Below, piece after piece: positions 152-11,931 of a DNA stretch of 64,000 nucleotides. Both the position numbers and the translations under genes were made by a program. Positions within the stretch are counted from its first letter, which is position 1; each line of letters opens with the position of its first letter. The stretch comes from a virus: IMG/VR virus record IMGVR_UViG_3300045988_110026, one strand, 5' to 3'. The notes under the pieces are model-generated. The model did no database searches and was not told the DNA's origin. It saw nothing but the letters and a program-made list of their open reading frames with translations.

Positions 152-565
152 ATGGCTTGTGTTTCTAAAATAGGATCGTTGTATGAGATGGTTACGAAGA
201 ATGTTATTGTCAGTACGACAAATACAGTCTTCGGTATTAACCCACGGGCTTGGATCGCCCTTCCGTGTGAGGGTCTTATCCTTCTTAAGATAAGGCAAGT
301 AGTTCCCACAGCCGGAAGTGCTCTACCGGTACAGATTGCGGTCCCGGCAAACAGTACAGTTTCAACAGTAGGAGCCGACACCTGTTGCCCGGTTACGGGA
401 GTGAATGTCGTGAACCCTATTAACGTAGCTGTCACGGGTGCTGCTATGGTAAATGGCACAGAACGCCTTCTGTACTTCAATAAAGTTCGTGGCGTGTTAA
501 GATTAATGGATTGTTGTGTTCCGACAACAACAGCCCAGGCGTCTGAAGTTAAAGCAGGTAAATGA
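152..565 (+). CDS. hypothetical protein
   Basis: 137-aa ORF with ATG at 152. It is followed directly by a hairpin terminator (573-600). The overlapping antisense ORF 136..480 is judged a shadow. Confidence 0.5.
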   Translation: MACVSKIGSLYEMVTKNVIVSTTNTVFGINPRAWIALPCEGLILLKIRQVVPTAGSALPVQIAVPANSTVSTVGADTCCPVTGVNVVNPINVAVTGAAMVNGTERLLYFNKVRGVLRLMDCCVPTTTAQASEVKAGK

Positions 566-572
566 TTTCAGT

Positions 573-600
573 AGGGTGATGGAGATCATCACCCTATTTT
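573..600 (+). terminator. rho-independent-like hairpin (agggtgat / atcaccct, 7-nt loop) followed by ATTTT
   Basis: 8-bp perfect stem read directly; weak T-run. Confidence 0.45.
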
Positions 601-615
601 CACCTAACTAATATT

Positions 616-1110
616 TTGATCATGTTTTCAGATTTGAAGAAAGGGTTTCAGGTACATACCCTTGATACTAATACAGTACCTAAATACGAATTGGGAAAGG
701 TAGTAGCCGTATCCGAACCCAGGTATCTTCCTCCTCAGCCAGGTCAGTATCAGGCGATGCAGACCCGCGTGGTGGATCTGACGGTAGAGCTCACTGGCGA
801 AACCAAGACCTATACGGTCCCGGAATCCCAGAATGTGGCTAAGGCTATGGGCATAACATTATCTACCAGCATAGATCCGATTATGAACGAGCTGAATGCC
901 ATAAAAAGCACCAGTCAGGAAATAATAGACAGCGTAGATGCCCATCGTGCCAAGATAGAGGCTTGTGAATCTATATTAGAAGATATCAATCCGGCATTCA
1001 AGCAAACGAGAGAGCAGGATCGTAAAATAGCTGGTATAGAAAATAAGGTGAATGACCTTACTGATTCATTCGAAGATTTAAAGAAGTTAATTGTAGAACG
1101 TTTGAAATAA
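616..1110 (+). CDS. hypothetical coiled-coil protein
   Basis: ORF track starts at TTG 616. The first ATG is at 622 (MFSDLKKG...). The C-terminal half is heptad-like and Glu/Lys-rich. Confidence 0.5.
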   Translation: MIMFSDLKKGFQVHTLDTNTVPKYELGKVVAVSEPRYLPPQPGQYQAMQTRVVDLTVELTGETKTYTVPESQNVAKAMGITLSTSIDPIMNELNAIKSTSQEIIDSVDAHRAKIEACESILEDINPAFKQTREQDRKIAGIENKVNDLTDSFEDLKKLIVERLK

Positions 1111-1117
1111 GTATAAT

Positions 1118-1486
1118 ATGATAGTATATGATTTAAATTCAGGACACAGAGAATATCCTGGATATGACGAGATAGAAGACAGACGAGGTGGAGGCAGAGG
1201 CAGAAGCCGGCGTTCTGATGGGACGTACATGGGGTACGGTGGTGGTATTTACGACCATTACGGTATGCATGAGAAGATGAAGGAAATGGAAGAACGCGAA
1301 AACGAGCTGGAAGAAAGGGAAAGAAGGCTTGAAGAGCGCGAACGTCGTCATGAAATGGAGGACCGGGAATACCGGAGGATGGGTTACGAATCCTACCCGA
1401 CCGATTACTATGGAGACGACAGATACTACGGTGACGGACCTCAGATGCGTAGAGGTCGCGGACGTGGCAGAGGTCGTTCTTATTGA
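1118..1486 (+). CDS. low-complexity RGG / Arg-Glu-repeat protein
   Basis: Contains GGGRGRSRR, GRGRGRGRS and EERERRLEERERRHEMEDREYRR runs plus Tyr/Gly-rich segments. Lies in the co-directional + array 7 bp after the previous stop. Confidence 0.5.
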   Translation: MIVYDLNSGHREYPGYDEIEDRRGGGRGRSRRSDGTYMGYGGGIYDHYGMHEKMKEMEERENELEERERRLEERERRHEMEDREYRRMGYESYPTDYYGDDRYYGDGPQMRRGRGRGRGRSY

Positions 1487-1579
1487 GGAGCAGACGCAGA
1501 GGATCCAGCTTATCAGAAATATGTAGATACTTACGGCTACCATTTTTCTAATGCTCTCGCTGATGAGGCGGTAAAGAAG

Positions 1580-1873
1580 ATGGTCAACGTCGATGGATCC
1601 AAGAGGATCTGGAAGCAGCCGGAAATAAAAGATATTTTTGAAAAGTGCGGAGCGAAGAAGCCGGATAAAGCGACATGGGGCGATGTCCAATATGTCTTTG
1701 CAATGTACTATTCGGATGGTTTTCCGAAGGTCTTCAAATGTGAGAACGAGTTGGTGAAAGCTACGTTAATGTATTTGGATGATCCGGATGCTCCCGAAGG
1801 AGTAGCCTTTATAAGATGGCTTGCCGTGCAAGATTACCTCGGCGAAAAAATAAACTGGAAGGATCTGACCTGA
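1580..1873 (+). CDS. hypothetical protein
   Basis: 97-aa ORF in + array; no motif recognised. Confidence 0.45.
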   Translation: MVNVDGSKRIWKQPEIKDIFEKCGAKKPDKATWGDVQYVFAMYYSDGFPKVFKCENELVKATLMYLDDPDAPEGVAFIRWLAVQDYLGEKINWKDLT

Positions 1874-2031
1874 GATCCAGATCCAGGTCCTTCCGGTGGT
1901 GCGGGAGCCATAGTAAAAAATATGATTCCCGCATTCCCGTTTTTCCCGTTTGGAAAAAAAGGAATAAAAATATTATACCGGTCGGCGGGCAATAGAATAC
2001 CCGTGGCCGGTTTGTTTCACATAACTTTTTT

Positions 2032-2214
2032 TTGGATATGAATATAGCACACGAATCTAAATCGAATAAAACCCCATTGTATTTAATAGGAGAGTTGATT
2101 GGCGTACCGAATACGGTTATGGACTCAGCATTGCATGAACTGAAAGATAGAATAGACAAAGACCCCAAATATAAAGATGTTAAAAATTGGCTCGAATCTT
2201 TACCCAAGATCTGA
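2032..2214 (+). CDS. hypothetical small protein
   Basis: 60-aa ORF followed by hairpin terminator 2238-2272. Confidence 0.3.
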   Translation: MDMNIAHESKSNKTPLYLIGELIGVPNTVMDSALHELKDRIDKDPKYKDVKNWLESLPKI

Positions 2215-2237
2215 ACCTATTTTTTTTCAATACCAGG

Positions 2238-2272
2238 CCCGATGCGATTTTAATGTATCGGGTTTTTATTTT
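2238..2272 (+). terminator. hairpin (cccgat...atcggg) followed by TTTTTATTTT
   Basis: read directly. Confidence 0.5.
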
Positions 2273-2317
2273 AATTCATATTGTTTTATTTTAAATCTAA
2301 TTAATTCATGAATGTCG

Positions 2318-2325
2318 TACTTTTG
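2318..2325 (+). promoter_or_regulatory. Bacteroidota-type -7 promoter element TACTTTTG (TAnnTTTG)
   Basis: exact TAnnTTTG 17 bp upstream of ATG 2343. Confidence 0.4.
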
Positions 2326-2342
2326 TTGAAAAAGTATTCTAT

Positions 2343-2570
2343 ATGGAAAATAAGGAAGATTACGTTGGTTACGAAGATCAAGAACTGTGTAACCGGTATT
2401 ACAAAGAGGCTGAAGCCATGAGGCAAAAGCAGGACTGGTCTCGGCTTAGGGCTGTCCCTGCTCCGGCCAAGGGAACGCCATCGCCCGGCTGGGGTCAGCT
2501 TGGACGTGGAAATGATGTCCGTGTCAAGTATGTTAGCATCAATTCAGGATTAGGAGGAGATAGGTTATGA
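2343..2570 (+). CDS. hypothetical protein
   Basis: 75-aa ORF after promoter-like motif. Confidence 0.45.
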   Translation: MENKEDYVGYEDQELCNRYYKEAEAMRQKQDWSRLRAVPAPAKGTPSPGWGQLGRGNDVRVKYVSINSGLGGDRL

Positions 2571-2782
2571 CTGTAGAAGAATTGGCTAATAAAAGATACG
2601 GTGGCGAATTTGTTTTCATGTTTGGTCATCTTGAAGGTAGAACAAGATTCGTTTTTGAATGCTTTGATCCCAGACCTGATCACGAAGGTAAAAACACTTA
2701 TATGGTTTCCTATTTTGATAAGGGACTTCGTAGAAGAGATGTGGTAGATGTGCCATGTTATATGAATATTTTGCCAAAATAA
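2567..2782 (+). CDS. hypothetical protein
   Basis: 71-aa ORF; ATGA overlap with the upstream gene. Confidence 0.45.
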   Translation: MTVEELANKRYGGEFVFMFGHLEGRTRFVFECFDPRPDHEGKNTYMVSYFDKGLRRRDVVDVPCYMNILPK

Positions 2783-2985
2783 TGGAAACATTAATCTTAG
2801 ATGTACCTGTATTTTCCGGTAAGATTATTTCTCCTATCTGGATTAAAGCCGTAAGAGATTTTCAATCCAAATCGAAGACAGAAAGAGACTCGTATTGTTT
2901 GATTTGTGGATGTACAGGAGGGTGTAACTTGTGCGATGATATAAGTAAATATAGGATTTCAGAACAATTAAAATATTACAAATAA
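2755..2985 (+). CDS. hypothetical Cys-rich protein
   Basis: 76 aa; CLICGCTGGCNLCDD cluster. Confidence 0.4.
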   Translation: MLYEYFAKIMETLILDVPVFSGKIISPIWIKAVRDFQSKSKTERDSYCLICGCTGGCNLCDDISKYRISEQLKYYK

Positions 2986-3749
2986 TGGAATTAAAAGATT
3001 CAGTCAGGGTAATGACTAAAGAAGAGTTCGAATCAGCAATCAACGAAGATATTAAATTCGTTGAAGGAATTAAGCATTTTTTTAAACATGATGATGCTAC
3101 GAGGGTAATGGAACACGTAAAGTCCGTGTTAGAAGCATCAGTAGACTACCACTACCCGAATCATCCTGAACCTGAAGCAGAACCTGGAGACATGGGAGAG
3201 GTTTCTGATGGATACCATACTTTCAATGAATTGTATCGGTACCGCATGTTGTATAACGCCGCCTTCTTTAATCTATTAGCCAGAAACGGACAGGTTGAAG
3301 TTTGCAAATCAAGAAAGCACAGTGACGGAGAAAAATGCTTCGGTTCTGATGATTGGTTTATTGTGATGGCAATGTTACCTACTGGTCAGGTGTCTAATCA
3401 CTATGAAAGCAAGTACTGGGATTTGTTTGATGTTCCTGAAAGAGAAACCGCTTTCGAATACGACGGCCATACACCAAATGAAGCCGCCGACAGACTTGAA
3501 CAGTATCTTAATCAAAAGAAGTCAGGTTTAACATTTGAAGAAGCTTTTAAATTTCTGAAAGATGGTAATATGATTAAAAGACGTGGATGGAAAAATGAAC
3601 ATCTTGATGCTTTTAGAAGAAGTGGTGTTGGCTCAATTCATATGGAAAAGTCATTGATCATAATTATAAATGAAGAAACACGGAGGCTGACATCGTGGAA
3701 CCCAAGTATAGAAGATATATCGTCGAATGATTGGGAGATTACGAAATGA
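2985..3749 (+). CDS. protein with C-terminal DUF2829 (Tad2-like) domain
   Basis: C-terminus LTFEEAFKFLKDGNMIKRRGWKNEHL...SWNPSIEDISSNDWEI matches the DUF2829 pattern (GxxvrRxgW...W.Ps.eDllaxDWei). The N-terminal ~180 aa are unassigned. Confidence 0.55.
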   Translation: MELKDSVRVMTKEEFESAINEDIKFVEGIKHFFKHDDATRVMEHVKSVLEASVDYHYPNHPEPEAEPGDMGEVSDGYHTFNELYRYRMLYNAAFFNLLARNGQVEVCKSRKHSDGEKCFGSDDWFIVMAMLPTGQVSNHYESKYWDLFDVPERETAFEYDGHTPNEAADRLEQYLNQKKSGLTFEEAFKFLKDGNMIKRRGWKNEHLDAFRRSGVGSIHMEKSLIIIINEETRRLTSWNPSIEDISSNDWEITK

Positions 3750-4021
3750 GTTTGTTTGTGTGTTCAAAATGTGGCTGTATAGATAATACAGCCACATCAT
3801 ATTACTGGGCTCTTATAAGACCTTGTAAGAATCGTATTTACGATAAGTCGCTAAAGGGATATGAAGGCAAGCCTCTTTGTTCTGAATGTGCCGCTATTGA
3901 ATATAGTAAGGGAAGCGAAGTGATGGTAGTTCCTGGAACGTGGCATGGTAAGTTCAAGAAAGAATGGCCTACTGAAGAAGAAAAGAAACATATTGGTAAA
4001 AACGGTATTTTAAATTATTGA
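3731..4021 (+). CDS. zinc-ribbon protein
   Basis: CSKCGC...CSEC motifs. Confidence 0.5.
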   Translation: MGDYEMSLFVCSKCGCIDNTATSYYWALIRPCKNRIYDKSLKGYEGKPLCSECAAIEYSKGSEVMVVPGTWHGKFKKEWPTEEEKKHIGKNGILNY

Positions 4022-4024
4022 TTT

Positions 4025-4330
4025 ATGTGTGATAAGGAAATTGTTGTATGCGCGGCCATCTGGGTACAGGATGACAAGAAACGTCCCTATCAGCCCACCA
4101 ATATACCATCCGGCATCGTGTTCTGTGGATTGAGACACCCCTCTATACTATCTCAACTTGCGGCATACGGTATAGCCCATAAAAACCGCAGTGTGCAAGG
4201 ATTTTTGACAAGCAAGAATCGGTTTCTAACAAGAGAGGAGGCATCTGAACTTGTTAAGAGCAATAATCAGGAAATGGTAGTAGATAGGAGTGCCATTAGA
4301 GAACAATTGTATTCAGAAGATCTATATTAA
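4025..4330 (+). CDS. hypothetical protein
   Basis: 101-aa ORF in + array. Confidence 0.45.
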   Translation: MCDKEIVVCAAIWVQDDKKRPYQPTNIPSGIVFCGLRHPSILSQLAAYGIAHKNRSVQGFLTSKNRFLTREEASELVKSNNQEMVVDRSAIREQLYSEDLY

Positions 4331-4347
4331 CTAAAAAACAAAACAAC

Positions 4348-4701
4348 ATGGGGTTTAAAATCAAAAAGTCAATCACTTATGATATGATGAACAGTAGTCG
4401 GGTAGAGTACGAATTTGATAATACCAATGATTTAAATCATATCATATTTAAAGGTAATTGTAGAGAACCTTTTTCATTTAGCAGAGTACTTGTTGAAGAA
4501 TTGATTAAGACATTTGAAACCATACGGGATAGATACTCTGATAATTATGAACTTAAGGTCTATCTTTACAATTGCATAATTCAACTGAGCGTAAATCCAA
4601 AGGATCCCAGTGAATCCTTTTTTGGCGTATATGATAGAGATGAGATGAAATTGATATATAGTATAAAAAATAGTATCTTGAAAGGAATGTTTGGCATATG
4701 A
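4348..4701 (+). CDS. hypothetical protein
   Basis: 117-aa ORF. Confidence 0.45.
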   Translation: MGFKIKKSITYDMMNSSRVEYEFDNTNDLNHIIFKGNCREPFSFSRVLVEELIKTFETIRDRYSDNYELKVYLYNCIIQLSVNPKDPSESFFGVYDRDEMKLIYSIKNSILKGMFGI

Positions 4702-5018
4702 TTACTAAACAAGATATACAAGTAGCAGCATCGTATGTTTTCCGAAGCAGTTTTGTCTCGGAGGACCAGACAAGGAAAACAATGGTAAAAGCCGGCAATA
4801 ACGCTACCAAGATCCTCGTCAATACCTTTAGAGGTAAGTTGTTCAAGAAAGCTTTTGAAAGAGCCCGTAGAGGAAAGGATATCAGTTCTTTTGAAAGACA
4901 GGAAAAAGAAAGTAGTTTCAATTTTCTTTACAATCCTAATAATGGTCGTATGCAAAGCGGTCATGTAAAAATAGATGAAATTGGACTATTTAAACAAATA
5001 ATAAAGTCGGGTACGTAA
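4698..5018 (+). CDS. hypothetical protein
   Basis: 106-aa ORF; 4-bp overlap with the upstream gene. Confidence 0.45.
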   Translation: MITKQDIQVAASYVFRSSFVSEDQTRKTMVKAGNNATKILVNTFRGKLFKKAFERARRGKDISSFERQEKESSFNFLYNPNNGRMQSGHVKIDEIGLFKQIIKSGT

Positions 5019-5047
5019 GTTATCCGACTTTTTCATATATTTGTGGC

Positions 5048-5368
5048 ATGGCACGAGGTTATTATTGGATACCGCAGACAGATGAAACGTTAAATGGCAT
5101 AAGCTATTACGTGACTAAGGTAGTAGGAGATATAGTGTTTGATACTAAACGAAAAAGAATAGTGTTTCAAACTACCAGGTATTTCCCAGTAGGCTCCGTA
5201 TTCCATTTTACTCACAACTGCTTTAAATACGTCATAACCTGCCGGCTCCGTAAGCCGGGGCTTTGGTTTGAAGCCAGGAGAGAAGATTCGGGCCCTATTT
5301 GCCCTGAAGATATTGAGCGCTTTGAATCGGGAAGGTATATTCACCGAGATGGTTACATACATACATAA
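5048..5368 (+). CDS. hypothetical protein
   Basis: 106-aa ORF. Confidence 0.45.
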   Translation: MARGYYWIPQTDETLNGISYYVTKVVGDIVFDTKRKRIVFQTTRYFPVGSVFHFTHNCFKYVITCRLRKPGLWFEARREDSGPICPEDIERFESGRYIHRDGYIHT

Positions 5369-5508: not shown

Positions 5509-8500
5509 ATGGCATCAACGTGTATTATTAAAAGAGATAATAAAAAGAAAGTTGTTTCTGTCTCTACCAGATCAGGGGACAGGTCTATGTTGTTTGATAA
5601 AATAGCATCTATTCCTCTTATGGAGAACAGGGAACGGGCTACTACTGTTTTTAAAACCGTATTTTCTAATAAGTTCTTAAAGGCTTTTGGCGACTGGAGA
5701 AAGAAAGTGCCTATCAACAAAAAGGCTTATAATAAGGTAAAATCCAACATCGATCTCATTCCGGAAGCCTATAGAGAAAGGGTGCTGGATAAGGCTTCTA
5801 AGATGAGTAACCCTGTTCTTGTGTCAAAATCAGATGCACCTTATGAAATCCGAGAATCGGGCTTTGGATTTTACAGCCAAGATCTGGGTGATAATATTAT
5901 GTTGGTAGATGCTATGGTCCCGTCAAGTATTTCCGTACCGGAAGGACCTGGAATAGACGCCGGGCAGTATTTACAAGATGCTATATCTTCGGACTTCACT
6001 CCCGTATCTATGGTACAGGATAAGGGTGTTAATTATATGGTTATAAAAGACGGTCTTAAGATATTTAGCCCAGAAGAGTTACCACAGACAGATTCTAATC
6101 CTGTGGGTGTAACGTATCAGACCGGAGAGCCTCGTTTGTTTTTCATGAACGATCGTAATCAATTATTTGAAGATTACGGAGAAGCTCTTCGCTCTGGCGG
6201 GAATGATATTAGAATAGGATTCTTATCAGGCACCGTTCAAGAATCTGCCTGGGATGGCGTGGCAGACATTACTTACAAAGCTGGAAGGTATGTTCTTAAT
6301 AATCCCAAATCTTTTATACCGGTCATGACCGCTTCTGCTTCTACTTCTTTATCAACAAAAGGTGGTATAATTAACTACCTTATAAAGAAAGGTCTTTTGT
6401 CCGGATCTAAGATATTCGATCCTGAAACAAGAAGCTATTATCTTACAGGAGAAGGTCATACAGGACAAATTAGACTTTTCAATTCAGCCTTATCCTACAC
6501 CGAGCTCCGTAATCATTTTGGTTCAGATGTTTCCATGAACGACCAAGGTATGATAACCATAAGCTCGTTGGATAATAGTAAGGTAACTATGAGGCTCGCC
6601 ACCGGAGGAACGGAAAGGGTTAGCAAAGAGCAGATAAAGAACGATCTAAAGTCAGGAAGATACAATGAATTGGACGCCAAGTACGATCATTTTGATGCGC
6701 TTGTAGTTTCATTCATATTAGAAGACAACGATCTTTATGCTGATACTAAAGCTAAGATCGTATCAGATTATAGCAGGCAGGAACGTGATCAACGAAATTC
6801 TATTGTCGAGATACTGAAAACGTTGGGCGTTAGTGTCATAGGTATGACCGATTATATAGAGAAGTATCAAACCAAATACGGGCACGAACCTTCTGCTAAG
6901 GCATTGGCGGATATTGCCAATAACGTAATAGCAGTTGGTGAAGATGCTACTTTATCTGATTTAGTAGAAGAAACAGCCCACTTCCTTGTAGAGGCATACA
7001 GAGATCAGAATGCTGTTGAAGCTGTTCTGCAAGATGTAGAAGGCACAGAAGAGTGGAACCAGTATGCAGGTCAGTATTATAATACATACGGTAAAGTATA
7101 TGAAGGAGCCGAGCTTGATAATGCTGTTAGGAGGGAAATTCTTGGAAAGATCCTCGCCAGGGAGATGCAGACCGGCACAGCACAGGCGCCGGTAGAGCCC
7201 ACCTCCTTCCTGGGGCGCGTCCGGCAGCTTCTCTCTGGAATAGTAAGCTGGCTTAAATCAGCTTTATCTACTCAAAGACAAGATTTGAATAACGTTATTA
7301 AAAACATTCGTGATCTTGCCATTACTGACATAGATAAAGGATTTGACACTTCTCTGTTAAAGGATAATGACTTTACATTATACTCCCTTTCTTCTATGAA
7401 CAAGAACAAGTTTCTTGAGTCTAAGATCAGATCGCTAAGAAAAACATTAAGAGACTTACGTCAGATAAGCTCTGATAGGGCTGTAACTACGTCTATGACC
7501 CTTGCTCAGCTTAAGACCATAGAAGATAAGATAAATAAAGTAGAGACCGAGATAGACAAGAATGAGATGGCGGCTGCCATGAACAGCATGATCTCCACAG
7601 CCGAAGCTCAGGTCAGATACTTAAGCAATGTGGTGAACACCATCCTTCATGGTGATACCAAAGACGGTAAGCTTCACTTCAATACCAATGATCGAAAGAA
7701 CGTCGATATTATCAACAATCAGGTTCTTCCGATCATGAACGATCTTCGAGGATATATCCGTAACAGAAGTACCGAATTTGATGAACGTGAAAAGCAGGAT
7801 TATACAAATAGGATCAATACCGTCATTGCCGACATCAATGGTATTCAGTCTGATATTAAATCAGTACAAGACCTTGATGAAAGTACGTTGCTTGATAAGT
7901 TAATGAACGAACTTCATGTGCCGGCAGATAAGGTAAAGAGAGTAAAAGAATTTTTCGACAAGGTTCAACACGATGTTTCTTGGATAAGTAGGTGGTTTGG
8001 TATATTAGAGCATTCTTCCAGTCCGTTCAATAACGCTCTTGGAGCTATGATTGCCAAAGACAATTACAATGCGATGGTGAATGCCCAGCCCGCCATATCC
8101 GACTTCCTGGCATATGCTAAAAAGCATGGTTTTAACAAATATGAATTTGAAAAACTGCTTCAGAAAGTAGACGGCAAAACTTCTAATTACCTTCGTAGTG
8201 CTCTTGATATGGCTAAATACGATCGTAATAAGAAGCTGGCGCAGATGCGAGCGTTTGCGACTGCCATGAACATAGAGATATCAGAAGAAGAAATCAATGA
8301 TGTGGTTGACAATAACCGTAATTACGTATTTAAAAGAGAAGTAGTTGACAAGGATGGAAATACGGTTACTGAAAACGCTAAATTCAAACCATCGTCTGAT
8401 AGAGTTAATACCGATATTTTTACCATCGAGCAGGAAAAGATCTATACGGAACAGATGGAAAAGTGGGATGCTGAAAATTCGGAACTGGAATTTAGCGAAA

Positions 8501-11500
8501 GTTATGCCACAAGAATGGAATCCATATACAAAAAGGCTGAAGAAGAATTAGGGTATCCGGTTTCTCAAACAACCAAAGAATACCTTAATGCCCTATCCCG
8601 GCAAAAACAGATATTGAGGCAGCCTTTTATTGATAGCGGTGGTAATTTTGATGAGGTTGCCTATTTTAAAAGCAGCAATTACGAAGAAGAAGGACTGCTT
8701 CGTAAACAACGTAAGGAAGCAGCTTCAGAATACATATATGTAGGAACCAGGAGAGTGGAAAAAACCGGCGACCAACTTAAGATGGCCAAAGAAATACAAG
8801 CTATAAATGAAGTTTGGAGAAAGGAATCAAATAATGCCACTAATGCCGTATCAGAATCGTTTTTGCAAAAATTAAGAACGATTCAGAGCGAGTCTGGAGG
8901 AGAAGCTGCGCTGAAGACACTTATGTTGGGAGGTCACCTGTCATTCAACGATCGGTTTTGGAATGATGTAGAATCAGAACAGTCGGCACGTACCGAATCA
9001 AATAACAAGGCTTCGTATCTTAAAATGGCGCATGATATCATTAGTTCTACGACAAGTGATAGAGATGCGACTGACGTGGATTCTATTGTGAAAGATATAG
9101 AAAAAAATAAGGCTATTATCAAGGAAATAATCGGAAACAATCGCGATGTGGCTGATATCGGAGAGATTAACGAAGCGACATTTACCTCATCTGAAAGAGA
9201 TGCTTTTAGGGCTGCATCTGAAGCTATTGAAGCCGATTACGCTATCTTAATAGATTATGCTAAGATGGTGGGTCTTGAAGATATTGATAAGTACCTTACT
9301 AAAAGCAGTAAGGCTGAAAACGAAGTAAATCAGTCTTATTTAAATGCTCTTGCTGACTCCAAGGAAGTGGAATGGAAGTTCGTACAACGTCATACTACGG
9401 CGAAGAAAGCAAAAAGGATTCAGGCTTTAAGGGATAAGCTGTTTAAGGCTGCTGATAACCGATATCTGTTTACCGTATCTGAAACCAACTACCTGTCAGA
9501 AAAGCTTGGTATAAGCAAAGAATTAGACGGTAGAGATTTCAGGAATGCTGTTAATGCTAAGATGGCCAGCTTATTTTTAAATAATACAAGAGAAGAGGGC
9601 GTAGAAGAAGCTAATGCTATTGTTAATGAATTTGCCAGAAGCCAGGTTTTTTCGTACTATAAACGCATGGCGCCTACCGGATATGCAGCTATGATCGACA
9701 AAATCGGTCGAGGTGAGATAGATGTGGCGCAAATGGTTAAGGACGTACAAAACGGTACATCCACCCAAGATTATGGCATGGACATATCGTACTTGTCTTT
9801 CGACCCTGTAAGGGCATTGGTGGCTGAATCTGAAGCCGAAAATAGCGGTCGTAATCCTGATTATGTAAAAGATCATGGGTATGGTCATCGAATGCCTAAG
9901 AAAAGCCTGTATCGTGACGAATCGTATTTCAATGACTTTGGTATCAAGTATGATGCTGACGGTAATGAGGTTGCTACTAAAAACGTAGAGCAGTGGAATA
10001 TGATTCAAAAACTCAAGGAAATAAAAAGACAATCCCTTGATCTATACAAAGAGCAGAGCCCGAACCTGTATGCTATTCCACAGATATCCAAACAAGATAT
10101 AGAACGTGTAGAAGGATTGGGTATTAACTTCAAAAATACGGTTCGTAATTTTGTATCAGATCTGTGCCTGGACAGAGTAGACGATTCTCTATATGGTAAG
10201 ACCAGGCAAGGAGAAGTGTATGATCCAGAAGACAGGCTTAGGTCTATACCTAAATACTACATATATGAATTGGAGAACCAAGATGATGTATCTCACGATT
10301 TTGGCTACTCTTATTCGATGCTTATGATGCAGTCATCGTTATACAACGAAAAGCAGAAGTCTATAGAGCTCGCTCAAGGACTGGAGCAGATGTTACTAAA
10401 TAAACAATTTGAAGGTGGTAAAAAGGCTGAAGCAACCCAAGCATATCAGATGTTCAGGGACTTCTTCAATGACCATTATTATGGCATTAGAATGAACACC
10501 AAAAAACTGACGGTAAACATCGGTGGATACACAGTAGACCTTACCAGGATAATGATGGCCGTTGAAAGATTTATGTCGGTCATGAACCTGGCGCTGTCCC
10601 CGTTTGTGGCAGCTACCGGCGCCCTGACAGGTCATATCAACCTCATCATGGAATCTGCCGTAGGACAGTATATAAGCAAAGACTCCCTTAAATACGCATC
10701 GGCTGAATTTTCACGCCTTGCTCCATCTTGTATAGCAGAAACCGGAGACATAGATAGGAAAAGCAAATTATATGTCATAGGTGAGAGAATGGGGATATTC
10801 AATATCCGAAATCGTATGTATGGTGCCGGATATAATAGAGTGGCCAGGACCTTAATGCGTTCGCCTATGTATGCTTTTATGGAAATCCTGAACTACCCTC
10901 TTGATCCGCAGGTTATGATTGCTACTATGGACAATGTTCGTTATTACAAAGGTCGGTTCTACACGTTCCAAGATTTCAAGATGGAAAAAGAACGCAATAA
11001 AGAACAGAGTACCATAAAAAGAGAATGGAACGCATTAAAAGATCGTACTTTATGGAGTATGGTAGACGTCGTGGATGGGAAGGTGGTTGTAAAGCCCAGA
11101 TCGGGTGTTACTGTTGAGGAAGTTGAAACCCAGATGGCTATAACCAGAAATCAAGTTCGTAGCTTGTCGCAGATATGTAACGGATCTTTGAATGAAGAAA
11201 ACCGGACTGCCGCATCGCGCAACTGGATAGCCAGGTTCATGACCGCCCACCGAGGATGGTTGGTGCTGGCGGCTCAACGCCTGTGGAAAAGACGTGGCTT
11301 CAATTTCCAAACAATGCAAGAAGAGGAAGGGTTGTCAATTACGTTAAAGAATATGATAGCCAAAACATTTAGCCTGGCTTCCGAGTCTGGTATGAAAAAC
11401 ATCATAGATGCCTGGAACGAAAATAAAGACAATATGAATGAGGTAGAAAAAACCAATCTCAAACGTCTTAGTGTCTATGCCGGCACGTTCCTTATCATGC

Positions 11501-11931
11501 AGGCCGTATCTATGCTTCTTGCCGGATGGCGTGATGATGATGAAAACGAAGAAAGTTGGCTTACTCAATTCGGATCCTATGTCGGATTCAGAACCATAAA
11601 CGAAATAGCTTCACAGATGCCGTTTATTATGGAGCTTAATGTGGTAGATATCATTAACGACCCGTTTGTTATGGGACGGAAACTTAAGGATCTTACCGAT
11701 CTTAGGAACTACTCACTTGATAAGGTGACGTCCGGTACATACAAAGGAGAGTCTAAGTTATTTAGGCAACTCGCCAAACAGACGTTTATCAAACAATGGT
11801 ATAATATCAAGACGCCGGAAGATATAGCGCGCGCCTATAATTGGTGGCAGCAGACAAACAACAAGTCAATGATGTTCTTCATCGGCGCCACTCCTGATTC
11901 GGAAGGAGACGATGATGTTAGTTACAAATAG
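5509..11931 (+). CDS. giant 2140-aa protein; candidate virion tape-measure / ejection-type protein
   Basis: Uninterrupted 6.4-kb ORF. It has a long central coiled-coil-like Lys/Glu/Asp-rich region and C-terminal hydrophobic segments (MMAVERFMSVMNLALSPFVAATGALTGHINLIM; VYAGTFLIMQAVSMLLAGW). No polymerase, helicase or methylase motif was seen. Confidence 0.75.
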   Translation: MASTCIIKRDNKKKVVSVSTRSGDRSMLFDKIASIPLMENRERATTVFKTVFSNKFLKAFGDWRKKVPINKKAYNKVKSNIDLIPEAYRERVLDKASKMSNPVLVSKSDAPYEIRESGFGFYSQDLGDNIMLVDAMVPSSISVPEGPGIDAGQYLQDAISSDFTPVSMVQDKGVNYMVIKDGLKIFSPEELPQTDSNPVGVTYQTGEPRLFFMNDRNQLFEDYGEALRSGGNDIRIGFLSGTVQESAWDGVADITYKAGRYVLNNPKSFIPVMTASASTSLSTKGGIINYLIKKGLLSGSKIFDPETRSYYLTGEGHTGQIRLFNSALSYTELRNHFGSDVSMNDQGMITISSLDNSKVTMRLATGGTERVSKEQIKNDLKSGRYNELDAKYDHFDALVVSFILEDNDLYADTKAKIVSDYSRQERDQRNSIVEILKTLGVSVIGMTDYIEKYQTKYGHEPSAKALADIANNVIAVGEDATLSDLVEETAHFLVEAYRDQNAVEAVLQDVEGTEEWNQYAGQYYNTYGKVYEGAELDNAVRREILGKILAREMQTGTAQAPVEPTSFLGRVRQLLSGIVSWLKSALSTQRQDLNNVIKNIRDLAITDIDKGFDTSLLKDNDFTLYSLSSMNKNKFLESKIRSLRKTLRDLRQISSDRAVTTSMTLAQLKTIEDKINKVETEIDKNEMAAAMNSMISTAEAQVRYLSNVVNTILHGDTKDGKLHFNTNDRKNVDIINNQVLPIMNDLRGYIRNRSTEFDEREKQDYTNRINTVIADINGIQSDIKSVQDLDESTLLDKLMNELHVPADKVKRVKEFFDKVQHDVSWISRWFGILEHSSSPFNNALGAMIAKDNYNAMVNAQPAISDFLAYAKKHGFNKYEFEKLLQKVDGKTSNYLRSALDMAKYDRNKKLAQMRAFATAMNIEISEEEINDVVDNNRNYVFKREVVDKDGNTVTENAKFKPSSDRVNTDIFTIEQEKIYTEQMEKWDAENSELEFSESYATRMESIYKKAEEELGYPVSQTTKEYLNALSRQKQILRQPFIDSGGNFDEVAYFKSSNYEEEGLLRKQRKEAASEYIYVGTRRVEKTGDQLKMAKEIQAINEVWRKESNNATNAVSESFLQKLRTIQSESGGEAALKTLMLGGHLSFNDRFWNDVESEQSARTESNNKASYLKMAHDIISSTTSDRDATDVDSIVKDIEKNKAIIKEIIGNNRDVADIGEINEATFTSSERDAFRAASEAIEADYAILIDYAKMVGLEDIDKYLTKSSKAENEVNQSYLNALADSKEVEWKFVQRHTTAKKAKRIQALRDKLFKAADNRYLFTVSETNYLSEKLGISKELDGRDFRNAVNAKMASLFLNNTREEGVEEANAIVNEFARSQVFSYYKRMAPTGYAAMIDKIGRGEIDVAQMVKDVQNGTSTQDYGMDISYLSFDPVRALVAESEAENSGRNPDYVKDHGYGHRMPKKSLYRDESYFNDFGIKYDADGNEVATKNVEQWNMIQKLKEIKRQSLDLYKEQSPNLYAIPQISKQDIERVEGLGINFKNTVRNFVSDLCLDRVDDSLYGKTRQGEVYDPEDRLRSIPKYYIYELENQDDVSHDFGYSYSMLMMQSSLYNEKQKSIELAQGLEQMLLNKQFEGGKKAEATQAYQMFRDFFNDHYYGIRMNTKKLTVNIGGYTVDLTRIMMAVERFMSVMNLALSPFVAATGALTGHINLIMESAVGQYISKDSLKYASAEFSRLAPSCIAETGDIDRKSKLYVIGERMGIFNIRNRMYGAGYNRVARTLMRSPMYAFMEILNYPLDPQVMIATMDNVRYYKGRFYTFQDFKMEKERNKEQSTIKREWNALKDRTLWSMVDVVDGKVVVKPRSGVTVEEVETQMAITRNQVRSLSQICNGSLNEENRTAASRNWIARFMTAHRGWLVLAAQRLWKRRGFNFQTMQEEEGLSITLKNMIAKTFSLASESGMKNIIDAWNENKDNMNEVEKTNLKRLSVYAGTFLIMQAVSMLLAGWRDDDENEESWLTQFGSYVGFRTINEIASQMPFIMELNVVDIINDPFVMGRKLKDLTDLRNYSLDKVTSGTYKGESKLFRQLAKQTFIKQWYNIKTPEDIARAYNWWQQTNNKSMMFFIGATPDSEGDDDVSYK

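Follow-up and report, generated by a model that had tools for sequence, protein, structure and literature searches.

The stretch of viral DNA analysed here (IMG/VR record IMGVR_UViG_3300045988_110026, 64,000 nucleotides, referred to as the window) carries on its plus strand, at 2985..3749, a complete coding sequence (CDS) of 254 amino acids (aa) plus a TGA stop, in which a WDGH domain is joined to a reduced, 'mini' form of the Tad2-like (DUF2829) domain. The product is read here, tentatively, as a modular counter-defence protein with a WDGH core and an exchangeable, reduced Tad2 sponge module. Two domains, PF25311 and PF11195, were detected in the protein by Pfam scan, both far over threshold. 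The two halves are placed in separate families by PHROGs, and the linker between them is only ~9 aa long. The protein is built of three parts: a helical hairpin specific to its lineage, then WDGH as an autonomous domain, and last the reduced domain of Tad2 type. The full-length AlphaFold model has a mean predicted local distance difference test score (pLDDT) of 78.

A preliminary description of this DNA had placed a DUF2829 domain in the last ~70 aa, and profile searching returned a significant match there. The segment aa 183-252 (3531..3740, plus strand) matches PF11195, the 'Thoeris anti-defense 2-like domain' formerly called DUF2829, with E=2.3e-11 and 44.5 bits against a cut-off of 25, over profile positions 2-72 of 73. 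Among PDB sequences, the domain matched the solved Tad2 of SPO1 and that of a Myroides prophage. When the AlphaFold model of the domain (pLDDT about 75-86) was searched with Foldseek, the matches were 8sme, 8smf, 8smg, 8wje, 8v3e and 9eib. Target-normalised template modelling scores (TM-scores) to SPO1 Tad2 and ModTad2 were 0.74-0.82 (a range covering 8sme, 8wje and 8v3e), with probability 1.00 and E of ~2e-4, a likeness that chance does not explain, and the long-insertion proteins HgmTad2 and SptTad2 fit the model less well. As judged from the profile match and the modelled fold, the C-terminal segment is a genuine Tad2-like domain. A search of a large protein database with the Tad2 part alone gave only 4 short fragments from the same phage group and is uninformative on its origin.

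The domain was aligned with four characterised Tad2 proteins, SPO1 gp34.65, ModTad2, HgmTad2 (= AcrIIA7) and SptTad2, and the pocket was compared at 7 positions by SPO1 numbering. Like these proteins, the query has helix alpha1, the antiparallel sheet, helix alpha3 and the final strand, together with the C-terminal (D/E)DW motif. Unlike them, it is not a stand-alone protein of 88-105 aa; its Tad2-like domain sits behind ~180 other residues. The ligand contacts of SPO1 Tad2 include W25, N26, W73, S76, T78 and D79, with W25, W73 and D79 as the main ones (bioRxiv 10.1101/2023.05.01.538930), and those of HgmTad2 are W21, N22, G23, W87, S90, T92 and D93 (bioRxiv 10.1101/2023.11.15.567273). All four characterised proteins share the pattern W-N-G ... 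W..S.(T/S)D. The pocket of the query reads W202-K203-N204 ... W238..S241.E243-D244, and the likeness to Tad2 is partial: 4 of the 7 residues are kept (W202, W238, S241 and D244, equivalent to W25, W73, S76 and D79) and 3 are altered, with K in place of N26, N in place of G27 and E in place of T78. The codons of W202-K203-N204, in the beta1-beta2 pocket loop, lie at 3588..3596 on the plus strand and correspond to SPO1 W25-N26-G27, where the Trp is kept and Asn-Gly has become Lys-Asn. Those of W238-N-P-S241-I-E243-D244 lie at 3696..3716 on the same strand and correspond to SPO1 W73...S76, T78 and D79, where W, S and D are kept and Thr/Ser has become Glu. The altered positions are the phosphate-binding Asn-Gly and the adenine-contacting Thr; the kept ones include the Trp/Trp/Asp that make most of the contacts.

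The second difference lies in the beta2-beta5 insertion, which is ~10 residues long in the query; SPO1 Tad2 has 24 aa at this place and HgmTad2 has 41 aa (24-41 aa across the characterised proteins). In Tad2 this insertion carries helix alpha2, which provides the V-dimer interface, and in HgmTad2 it builds the cyclic dinucleotide (CDN) pocket (bioRxiv 10.1101/2023.11.15.567273). In the AlphaFold model of the query it has shrunk to a low-confidence loop (aa 212-221, pLDDT <50); helix alpha2 and the insertion-formed CDN sub-site of HgmTad2 are both missing. Since the second (CDN) site of HgmTad2 is built by the insertion, it should be absent here. The elements of the canonical pocket, that is the beta1-beta2 loop, the core strand, the pre-alpha3 loop and alpha3, are all retained, and W202, W238 and D244 are invariant in 47 of 47 aligned fusion proteins. 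By its sequence, then, the domain is a reduced and derived 'mini-Tad2'. A ligand site in it is plausible on the model, though not the textbook site for glycocyclic ADP-ribose (gcADPR). With 3 pocket residues and the insertion lost, sequestration of gcADPR cannot simply be assumed. Given the replacements at K203, N204 and E243 and the lost insertion sub-domain, the binding mode of the ligand probably departs in some respect from that of 1''-3' gcADPR in SPO1 Tad2. Tad2 members bind varied ligands, among them gcADPR, His-ADPR, N7-cADPR, cCMP/cUMP and CDNs (including bioRxiv 10.1101/2023.11.15.567273), and a sponge function of the mini-Tad2 domain fits this known plasticity of the family. The mini form also shows how small the ligand-binding core of Tad2 can become.

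The first ~180 aa had been described as a novel domain matching nothing recognisable. This did not hold up: aa 71-173 (3195..3503, plus strand) match the WDGH family PF25311 with E=7.4e-37 and 126 bits against a cut-off of 27, over profile positions 1-96 of 97, and the same residues match PHROG families 3392, 3769 and 21846. Only aa 1-66 are left without a family. Set beside other members (Orf186 of Salmonella phages ST64T, ST160 and L, gp21 of Listeria phage A511 and gp128 of P100), the query segment is a full-length, high-scoring member. The motifs SDGYHTF.ELY, KS..H.DG and GQ.SNHYE are all present, and the last motif, which names the family, appears as YDGH (Y159-D-G-H162). This W to Y change, found throughout the clade of the query, is the only departure from the near-invariant residues. 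The nearly invariant polar residues are S74, D75, H78, T79, E82, R87, N91, N96, K108, S109, H112, Q135, S137, N138, H139, E141, D160 and H162, and include four histidines (H78, H112, H139 and H162). Such a pattern is more reminiscent of a catalytic site, or of one that binds a ligand tightly, than of a scaffold. A model of the WDGH domain alone, built with 148 sequences, reached a pLDDT of 94 and a predicted TM-score of 0.83; the predicted fold is an alpha+beta sandwich, whose elements are one short strand, one long helix, a meander of four to five strands, a further short helix and a helix at the C-terminus. The possibility that WDGH is a diverged Tad2 repeat was ruled out by hhalign comparison with the Tad2 alignment, which gave a probability of 0.7%.

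The WDGH family extends over thousands of phage and prophage protein clusters and is conserved to an uncommon degree. At E <=1e-3 the query was matched by 3,724 representatives at 50% clustering, and a set of 147 proteins, made up of the query and the 146 top-scoring of these representatives, was scanned with Pfam. WDGH is present in all 147 proteins and is typically 60-70% identical over the domain. Copies were also identified in 197 sequenced phages, among them Listeria phages A511 and P100, numerous Bacillus phages, and P22-like Salmonella, streptococcal and lactococcal phages; in essentially all of the annotated phage records listed, the proteins are labelled hypothetical. A further 43 loci in bacterial or archaeal genomes are prophages or phage contigs binned with genomes, and cover Bacteroidota, Vibrio, Nocardia, Streptomyces, Bifidobacterium and others at 50-75% identity. 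Many of these genomic copies are stand-alone open reading frames (ORFs) of 112-135 aa, which indicates that WDGH is an autonomous unit. One stand-alone copy of 116 aa lies on a contig binned to Methanobrevibacter sp. (JAFRFB010000006.1, locus L026); this contig may come from an archaeal virus or prophage, unless it was binned wrongly. In the P22-like Salmonella phages ST64T, ST160 and L, the WDGH protein Orf186 is encoded by a moron-like insert between the genes for coat protein gp5 and head-tail adaptor gp4. The gene lies at NC_014900.1 30080-30640 in ST160 (locus L003), and Orf186 offers a tractable model for WDGH function. Since the family has no assigned function, membership in it is uninformative on mechanism. 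Literature searches on WDGH, PF25311 and csAssE returned nothing relevant.

The fusion of the two domains recurs among relatives. In a search of 5.8 billion proteins clustered at 90% identity, ~100 of the best 120 clusters carry both PF25311 and PF11195, some of them with thousands of members, on contigs of up to 165 kb. The WDGH-Tad2 fusion is common in gut metagenomes, and the metagenomic fusions have already been automatically annotated with both Pfam domains. Within this group the N-terminal region is swapped for unrelated modules, for example Bro-N and several unnamed beta-rich domains, and the C-terminal part ranges from the mini form to canonical Tad2. In more distant WDGH fusions the Tad2 is fully canonical: 7 of 7 pocket residues are present, the insertion is long, and the match to SptTad2 has E=2e-16. 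In six clusters (P0106-P0109, P0114 and P0115) WDGH is followed by PF21825 and then by a canonical long-insertion Tad2; in P0107 the three domains span aa 67-167, aa 177-238 and aa 250-345, respectively. PF21825, the 'crAss001_48-related' family, has been named Sequestin by Tal et al. 2025. It is a 3' cyclic ADP-ribose (3'cADPR) sponge that was found through its fusion to Tad2 and Acb4 (bioRxiv 10.1101/2025.07.12.664507). By their domain sequences, these triple fusions join WDGH in one chain to two sponge families, Tad2 and Sequestin, that have been validated by experiment. Two further relatives show other arrangements: in P0061 (304 aa) an RRXRR domain (PF14239) follows WDGH in place of Tad2, and in P0080 (382 aa) an IS605 OrfB-type helix-turn-helix precedes WDGH-Tad2. 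Taken together, they point to insertion of mobile-element genes at the domain boundaries of the locus.

Fusions of Tad2 to a second sponge have been validated. Acb4-Tad2 of Pasteurella phage Pm86, Tad2-Sequestin and Sequestin-Acb4 are validated multi-sponge proteins; Tad2-Acb4 and Tad2-Sequestin act as working double sponges, and the Acb4-Tad2 fusion blocks both Thoeris and CBASS (bioRxiv 10.1101/2025.07.12.664507). The query resembles these proteins in that a Tad2 domain and another small phage domain share one polypeptide. It differs in that only its Tad2-like half belongs to a validated sponge family, WDGH having no characterised member. WDGH is not mentioned in the paper of Tal et al., and its signature strings are absent from the supplementary tables (bioRxiv 10.1101/2025.07.12.664507). 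Acb5A, at 72 aa, is a different protein. No discussion of the WDGH-Tad2 fusion was found in the DUF2829 literature, and the WDGH-Tad2 and WDGH-Sequestin-Tad2 architectures, the mini-Tad2 form and the cassette exchange described below were likewise not found in the literature searched. The two domains themselves are not new, both being catalogued in Pfam, and neither is the principle of multi-domain Tad2 fusions, which has been published.

Comparison with a close relative indicated that the Tad2 module is exchanged as a unit. Over its first 12 kb the window shares 95% identity with csAssE-Sib (OR575929.1), a human-gut phage of 151 kb, in which the homologous gene carries no annotation other than 'protein of unknown function (DUF2829)'. 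In windows of 21 columns, DNA identity to csAssE-Sib is at least 95% up to ~3495, falls to 10-81% (mostly <70%) over ~3500-3730 and is at least 86% from ~3735. Synonymous divergence (dS) is 1.7 in the Tad2 cassette as against 0.26 in WDGH. The drop in identity is confined to ~3500-3730, and only the Tad2 domain has therefore been replaced. The exchangeable cassette (3500..3730, plus strand) is the sole strongly divergent segment between the window and csAssE-Sib, and the exchange falls precisely at the domain boundary. A similar replacement is seen in the relative P0024, which compared with the query is 100% identical in the N-terminal region, 96% in WDGH and only 34% in Tad2. Among relatives with WDGH at least 90% identical, three cassette types were distinguished, with 33-60% identity between types; each of the three is a mini form that retains W, W and D. 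Carried on a near-identical backbone, these types provide a natural allelic series for mapping ligand specificity.

Selection on each part was estimated from pairwise Nei-Gojobori ratios of non-synonymous to synonymous substitution (dN/dS), all of which are based on very few substitutions. The values are 0.04-0.14 for WDGH, 0.16-0.57 for the N-terminal hairpin and, for the Tad2 cassette within one allele, a rough 0.16-0.33, which places the mini-Tad2 cassette under purifying selection. These figures bear on the suggestion that the cassette is a degenerating relic which binds no ligand, so that the protein would be a WDGH protein with a vestigial tail. We consider this quite improbable. The residues equivalent to N26, G27 and T78 and the entire insertion are gone, the same three positions vary strongly among the three cassette types, and some close relatives show WDGH only. 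In one of these, P0027 (L002:3456-3788 on a Logan SRR19039983 contig), codon 4 of the Tad2 domain has changed from GAA to TAA, and the sequence beyond it is further disrupted; it otherwise resembles the csAssE-Sib-type cassette and parts from it ~110 nucleotides past the TAA. The product is cut to 184 aa, and its 90%-identity cluster holds 77 sequences. A relic would, however, hardly be expected to show a dN/dS well below 1, or to keep W202, W238, D244, D249 and W250 invariant across all cassette forms. The frame is also intact in most relatives, and the cassette is exchanged as an intact unit rather than eroded.

If the protein is a counter-defence protein directed against nucleotide-based immune signalling, its action may be pictured as follows. 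The mini-Tad2 domains of several subunits would pair through helix alpha1, and pockets between the subunits, lined by W202, W238, S241 and D244, would capture an immune signal, derived from ADP-ribose or related to such signals, that host TIR-type enzymes produce. Capture of the signal would keep the effector from firing. WDGH would add a second, strongly constrained activity, possibly the binding or cleavage of another signal or metabolite. That near-identical phages exchange the Tad2 module as a cassette is what one would expect of a part caught up in an arms race. Oligomerisation, ligand binding, any activity of WDGH and the anti-defence role are all put forward here by inference from the domain composition, the predicted fold and the residue pattern, together with the observed cassette exchange, purifying selection and WDGH-sponge fusions. 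The preliminary description had proposed a sponge combined with a second activity. The published double sponges and the relatives with WDGH, Sequestin and Tad2 in one chain speak for this proposal, and its sponge half is weakened by the reduced state of Tad2 and the 3 of 7 changed pocket residues.

Several observations weigh against a counter-defence role. Besides the altered pocket, the shrunken insertion and the small number of substitutions behind the dN/dS values, the nonsense codon of P0027 indicates that the Tad2 domain can be lost. Tad2 is present in only 5 of the 147 scanned WDGH proteins, most of the family being without it, unlike the query, and no Tad2 domain was found within 6 kb of any of the 43 genomic WDGH loci; the function of WDGH is accordingly not bound to Tad2 in general. 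When WDGH was searched as a profile against PDB sequences, no match appeared, and a BFVD search returned only uncharacterised 'WDGH domain-containing' phage proteins, so that neither search identified a relative of known function, whether by structure or by sequence. Searches of PADLOC and NCBIfam with the WDGH-Tad2 protein gave 0 matches.

These points lend some weight to a different explanation, which we regard as possible though less probable than the counter-defence reading. WDGH may be the real effector and act outside the interception of immune signals, for example in host takeover or in nucleotide or DNA metabolism, with the Tad2-like cassette as an oligomerisation or ligand-sensing accessory that tunes or localises it. 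WDGH is far more conserved than the Tad2 part, both in dN/dS and in its identity across phyla. It often stands alone, with no Tad2 nearby; it is joined to many unrelated modules (Bro-N, GNAT, sigma-70 region 4, Myb and YccV-like), and in P22-like phages it lies between the coat gene and gp4. Against this stands the fusion of WDGH to two independent validated sponge families, as the published logic of such fusions points to the same pathway. In addition, the Trp/Trp/Asp of the pocket is invariant in every Tad2 cassette, which suggests a maintained ligand site and not a mere scaffold.

The counter-defence reading can be carried further. WDGH itself could be an unrecognised and very widespread phage family that manipulates host immune signalling, either as a signal-destroying enzyme or as a new sponge; this extension is speculative and rather doubtful. 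The gene would then encode a gut-phage 'Swiss-army' inhibitor with a constant WDGH core and exchangeable mini-Tad2, canonical Tad2 and Sequestin cassettes. Fusion to a known sponge was the criterion behind the discovery of Sequestin, and by the same logic WDGH is a cheap-to-test candidate for a new anti-defence activity. Its members abound in human-gut viromes, and some belong to model phages that can be cultivated. If neither domain acts on immune signals, the protein would caution against reading every DUF2829 match as a Thoeris inhibitor.

The fusion could in principle be an annotation artefact in which two genes, or a frameshifted pair, are read as one ORF. Short Tad2-only ORFs (64-90 aa, 85-92% identical) and WDGH-only ORFs do occur in some contigs. 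The ORF list and the raw sequence nevertheless show a single unbroken frame of 254 codons from ATG 2985 to TGA 3747-3749, across the short linker. The identical 254-aa protein is present on 11 contigs, the architecture recurs in most of the best clusters, and the sole WDGH-only split form examined (P0027) is explained by a nonsense mutation. A mis-joined ORF is ruled out on these grounds, and an artefact of any of these kinds is scarcely credible. The preliminary description was right to regard this unusually long protein as a true C-terminal fusion.

The N-terminal extension, aa 1-66 (2985..3182, plus strand), is predicted by AlphaFold to form a two-helix hairpin (H12-32 and H36-56). It has no Pfam, NCBIfam or PADLOC family match and is lineage-specific, being 67-100% identical among close relatives and replaced by unrelated modules in other relatives.

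The gene is placed in a block of small, overlapping accessory genes without assigned function, a setting that counts in favour of the counter-defence reading. Its start overlaps the stop of an upstream 76-aa ORF (TAATG at 2983-2987), and its stop overlaps the ATG of a downstream Cys-rich ORF (ATGA at 3746-3749), which makes it part of a tightly packed operon. By this arrangement, the CDS is translationally coupled to both neighbours. No Shine-Dalgarno-like purine run is visible in the raw sequence just 5' of ATG 2985. The operon of small plus-strand genes spans 152..5368 and ends in a 2140-aa virion structural protein. An interpretation of the neighbouring genes as an anti-defence island was dropped, as they comprise only DUF7841, a T4_Y16D-like protein and uncharacterised PHROG families, none of which is diagnostic.

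All of the neighbours are on the plus strand. The ORF at 2755..2985, which contains CLICGCTGGCNLC and overlaps the WDGH-Tad2 gene by 1 nucleotide, is small and Cys-rich. So is the ORF at 3746..4021, which carries CSKCGC...CSEC, matches phrog_11861 and overlaps the gene by 4 nucleotides. From their sequences, both look like zinc-ribbon proteins. A 101-aa ORF at 4025..4330 matches phrog_839; our own Pfam scan of it at E <=0.01 gave no match, and its homologue at locus L050 has a precomputed match to PF26092 (T4_Y16D). Upstream, a 97-aa ORF at 1580..1873 matches Pfam DUF7841 (E=4e-9) and is kept upstream of the WDGH-Tad2 gene in the related contigs L047 and L050. The 122-aa ORF at 1118..1486 is of low complexity, with Arg/Gly and Glu/Arg repeats (…RRGGGRGRSRR…EERERRLEERERRHE…RGRGRGRGRSY), and is also called as a gene in related contigs (L002). 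The small-gene block is followed directly by the giant 2140-aa ORF at 5509..11931, which has a match to phrog_37651 'virion structural protein' (E=1e-75) and whose counterpart in csAssE-Sib is annotated as a structural protein.

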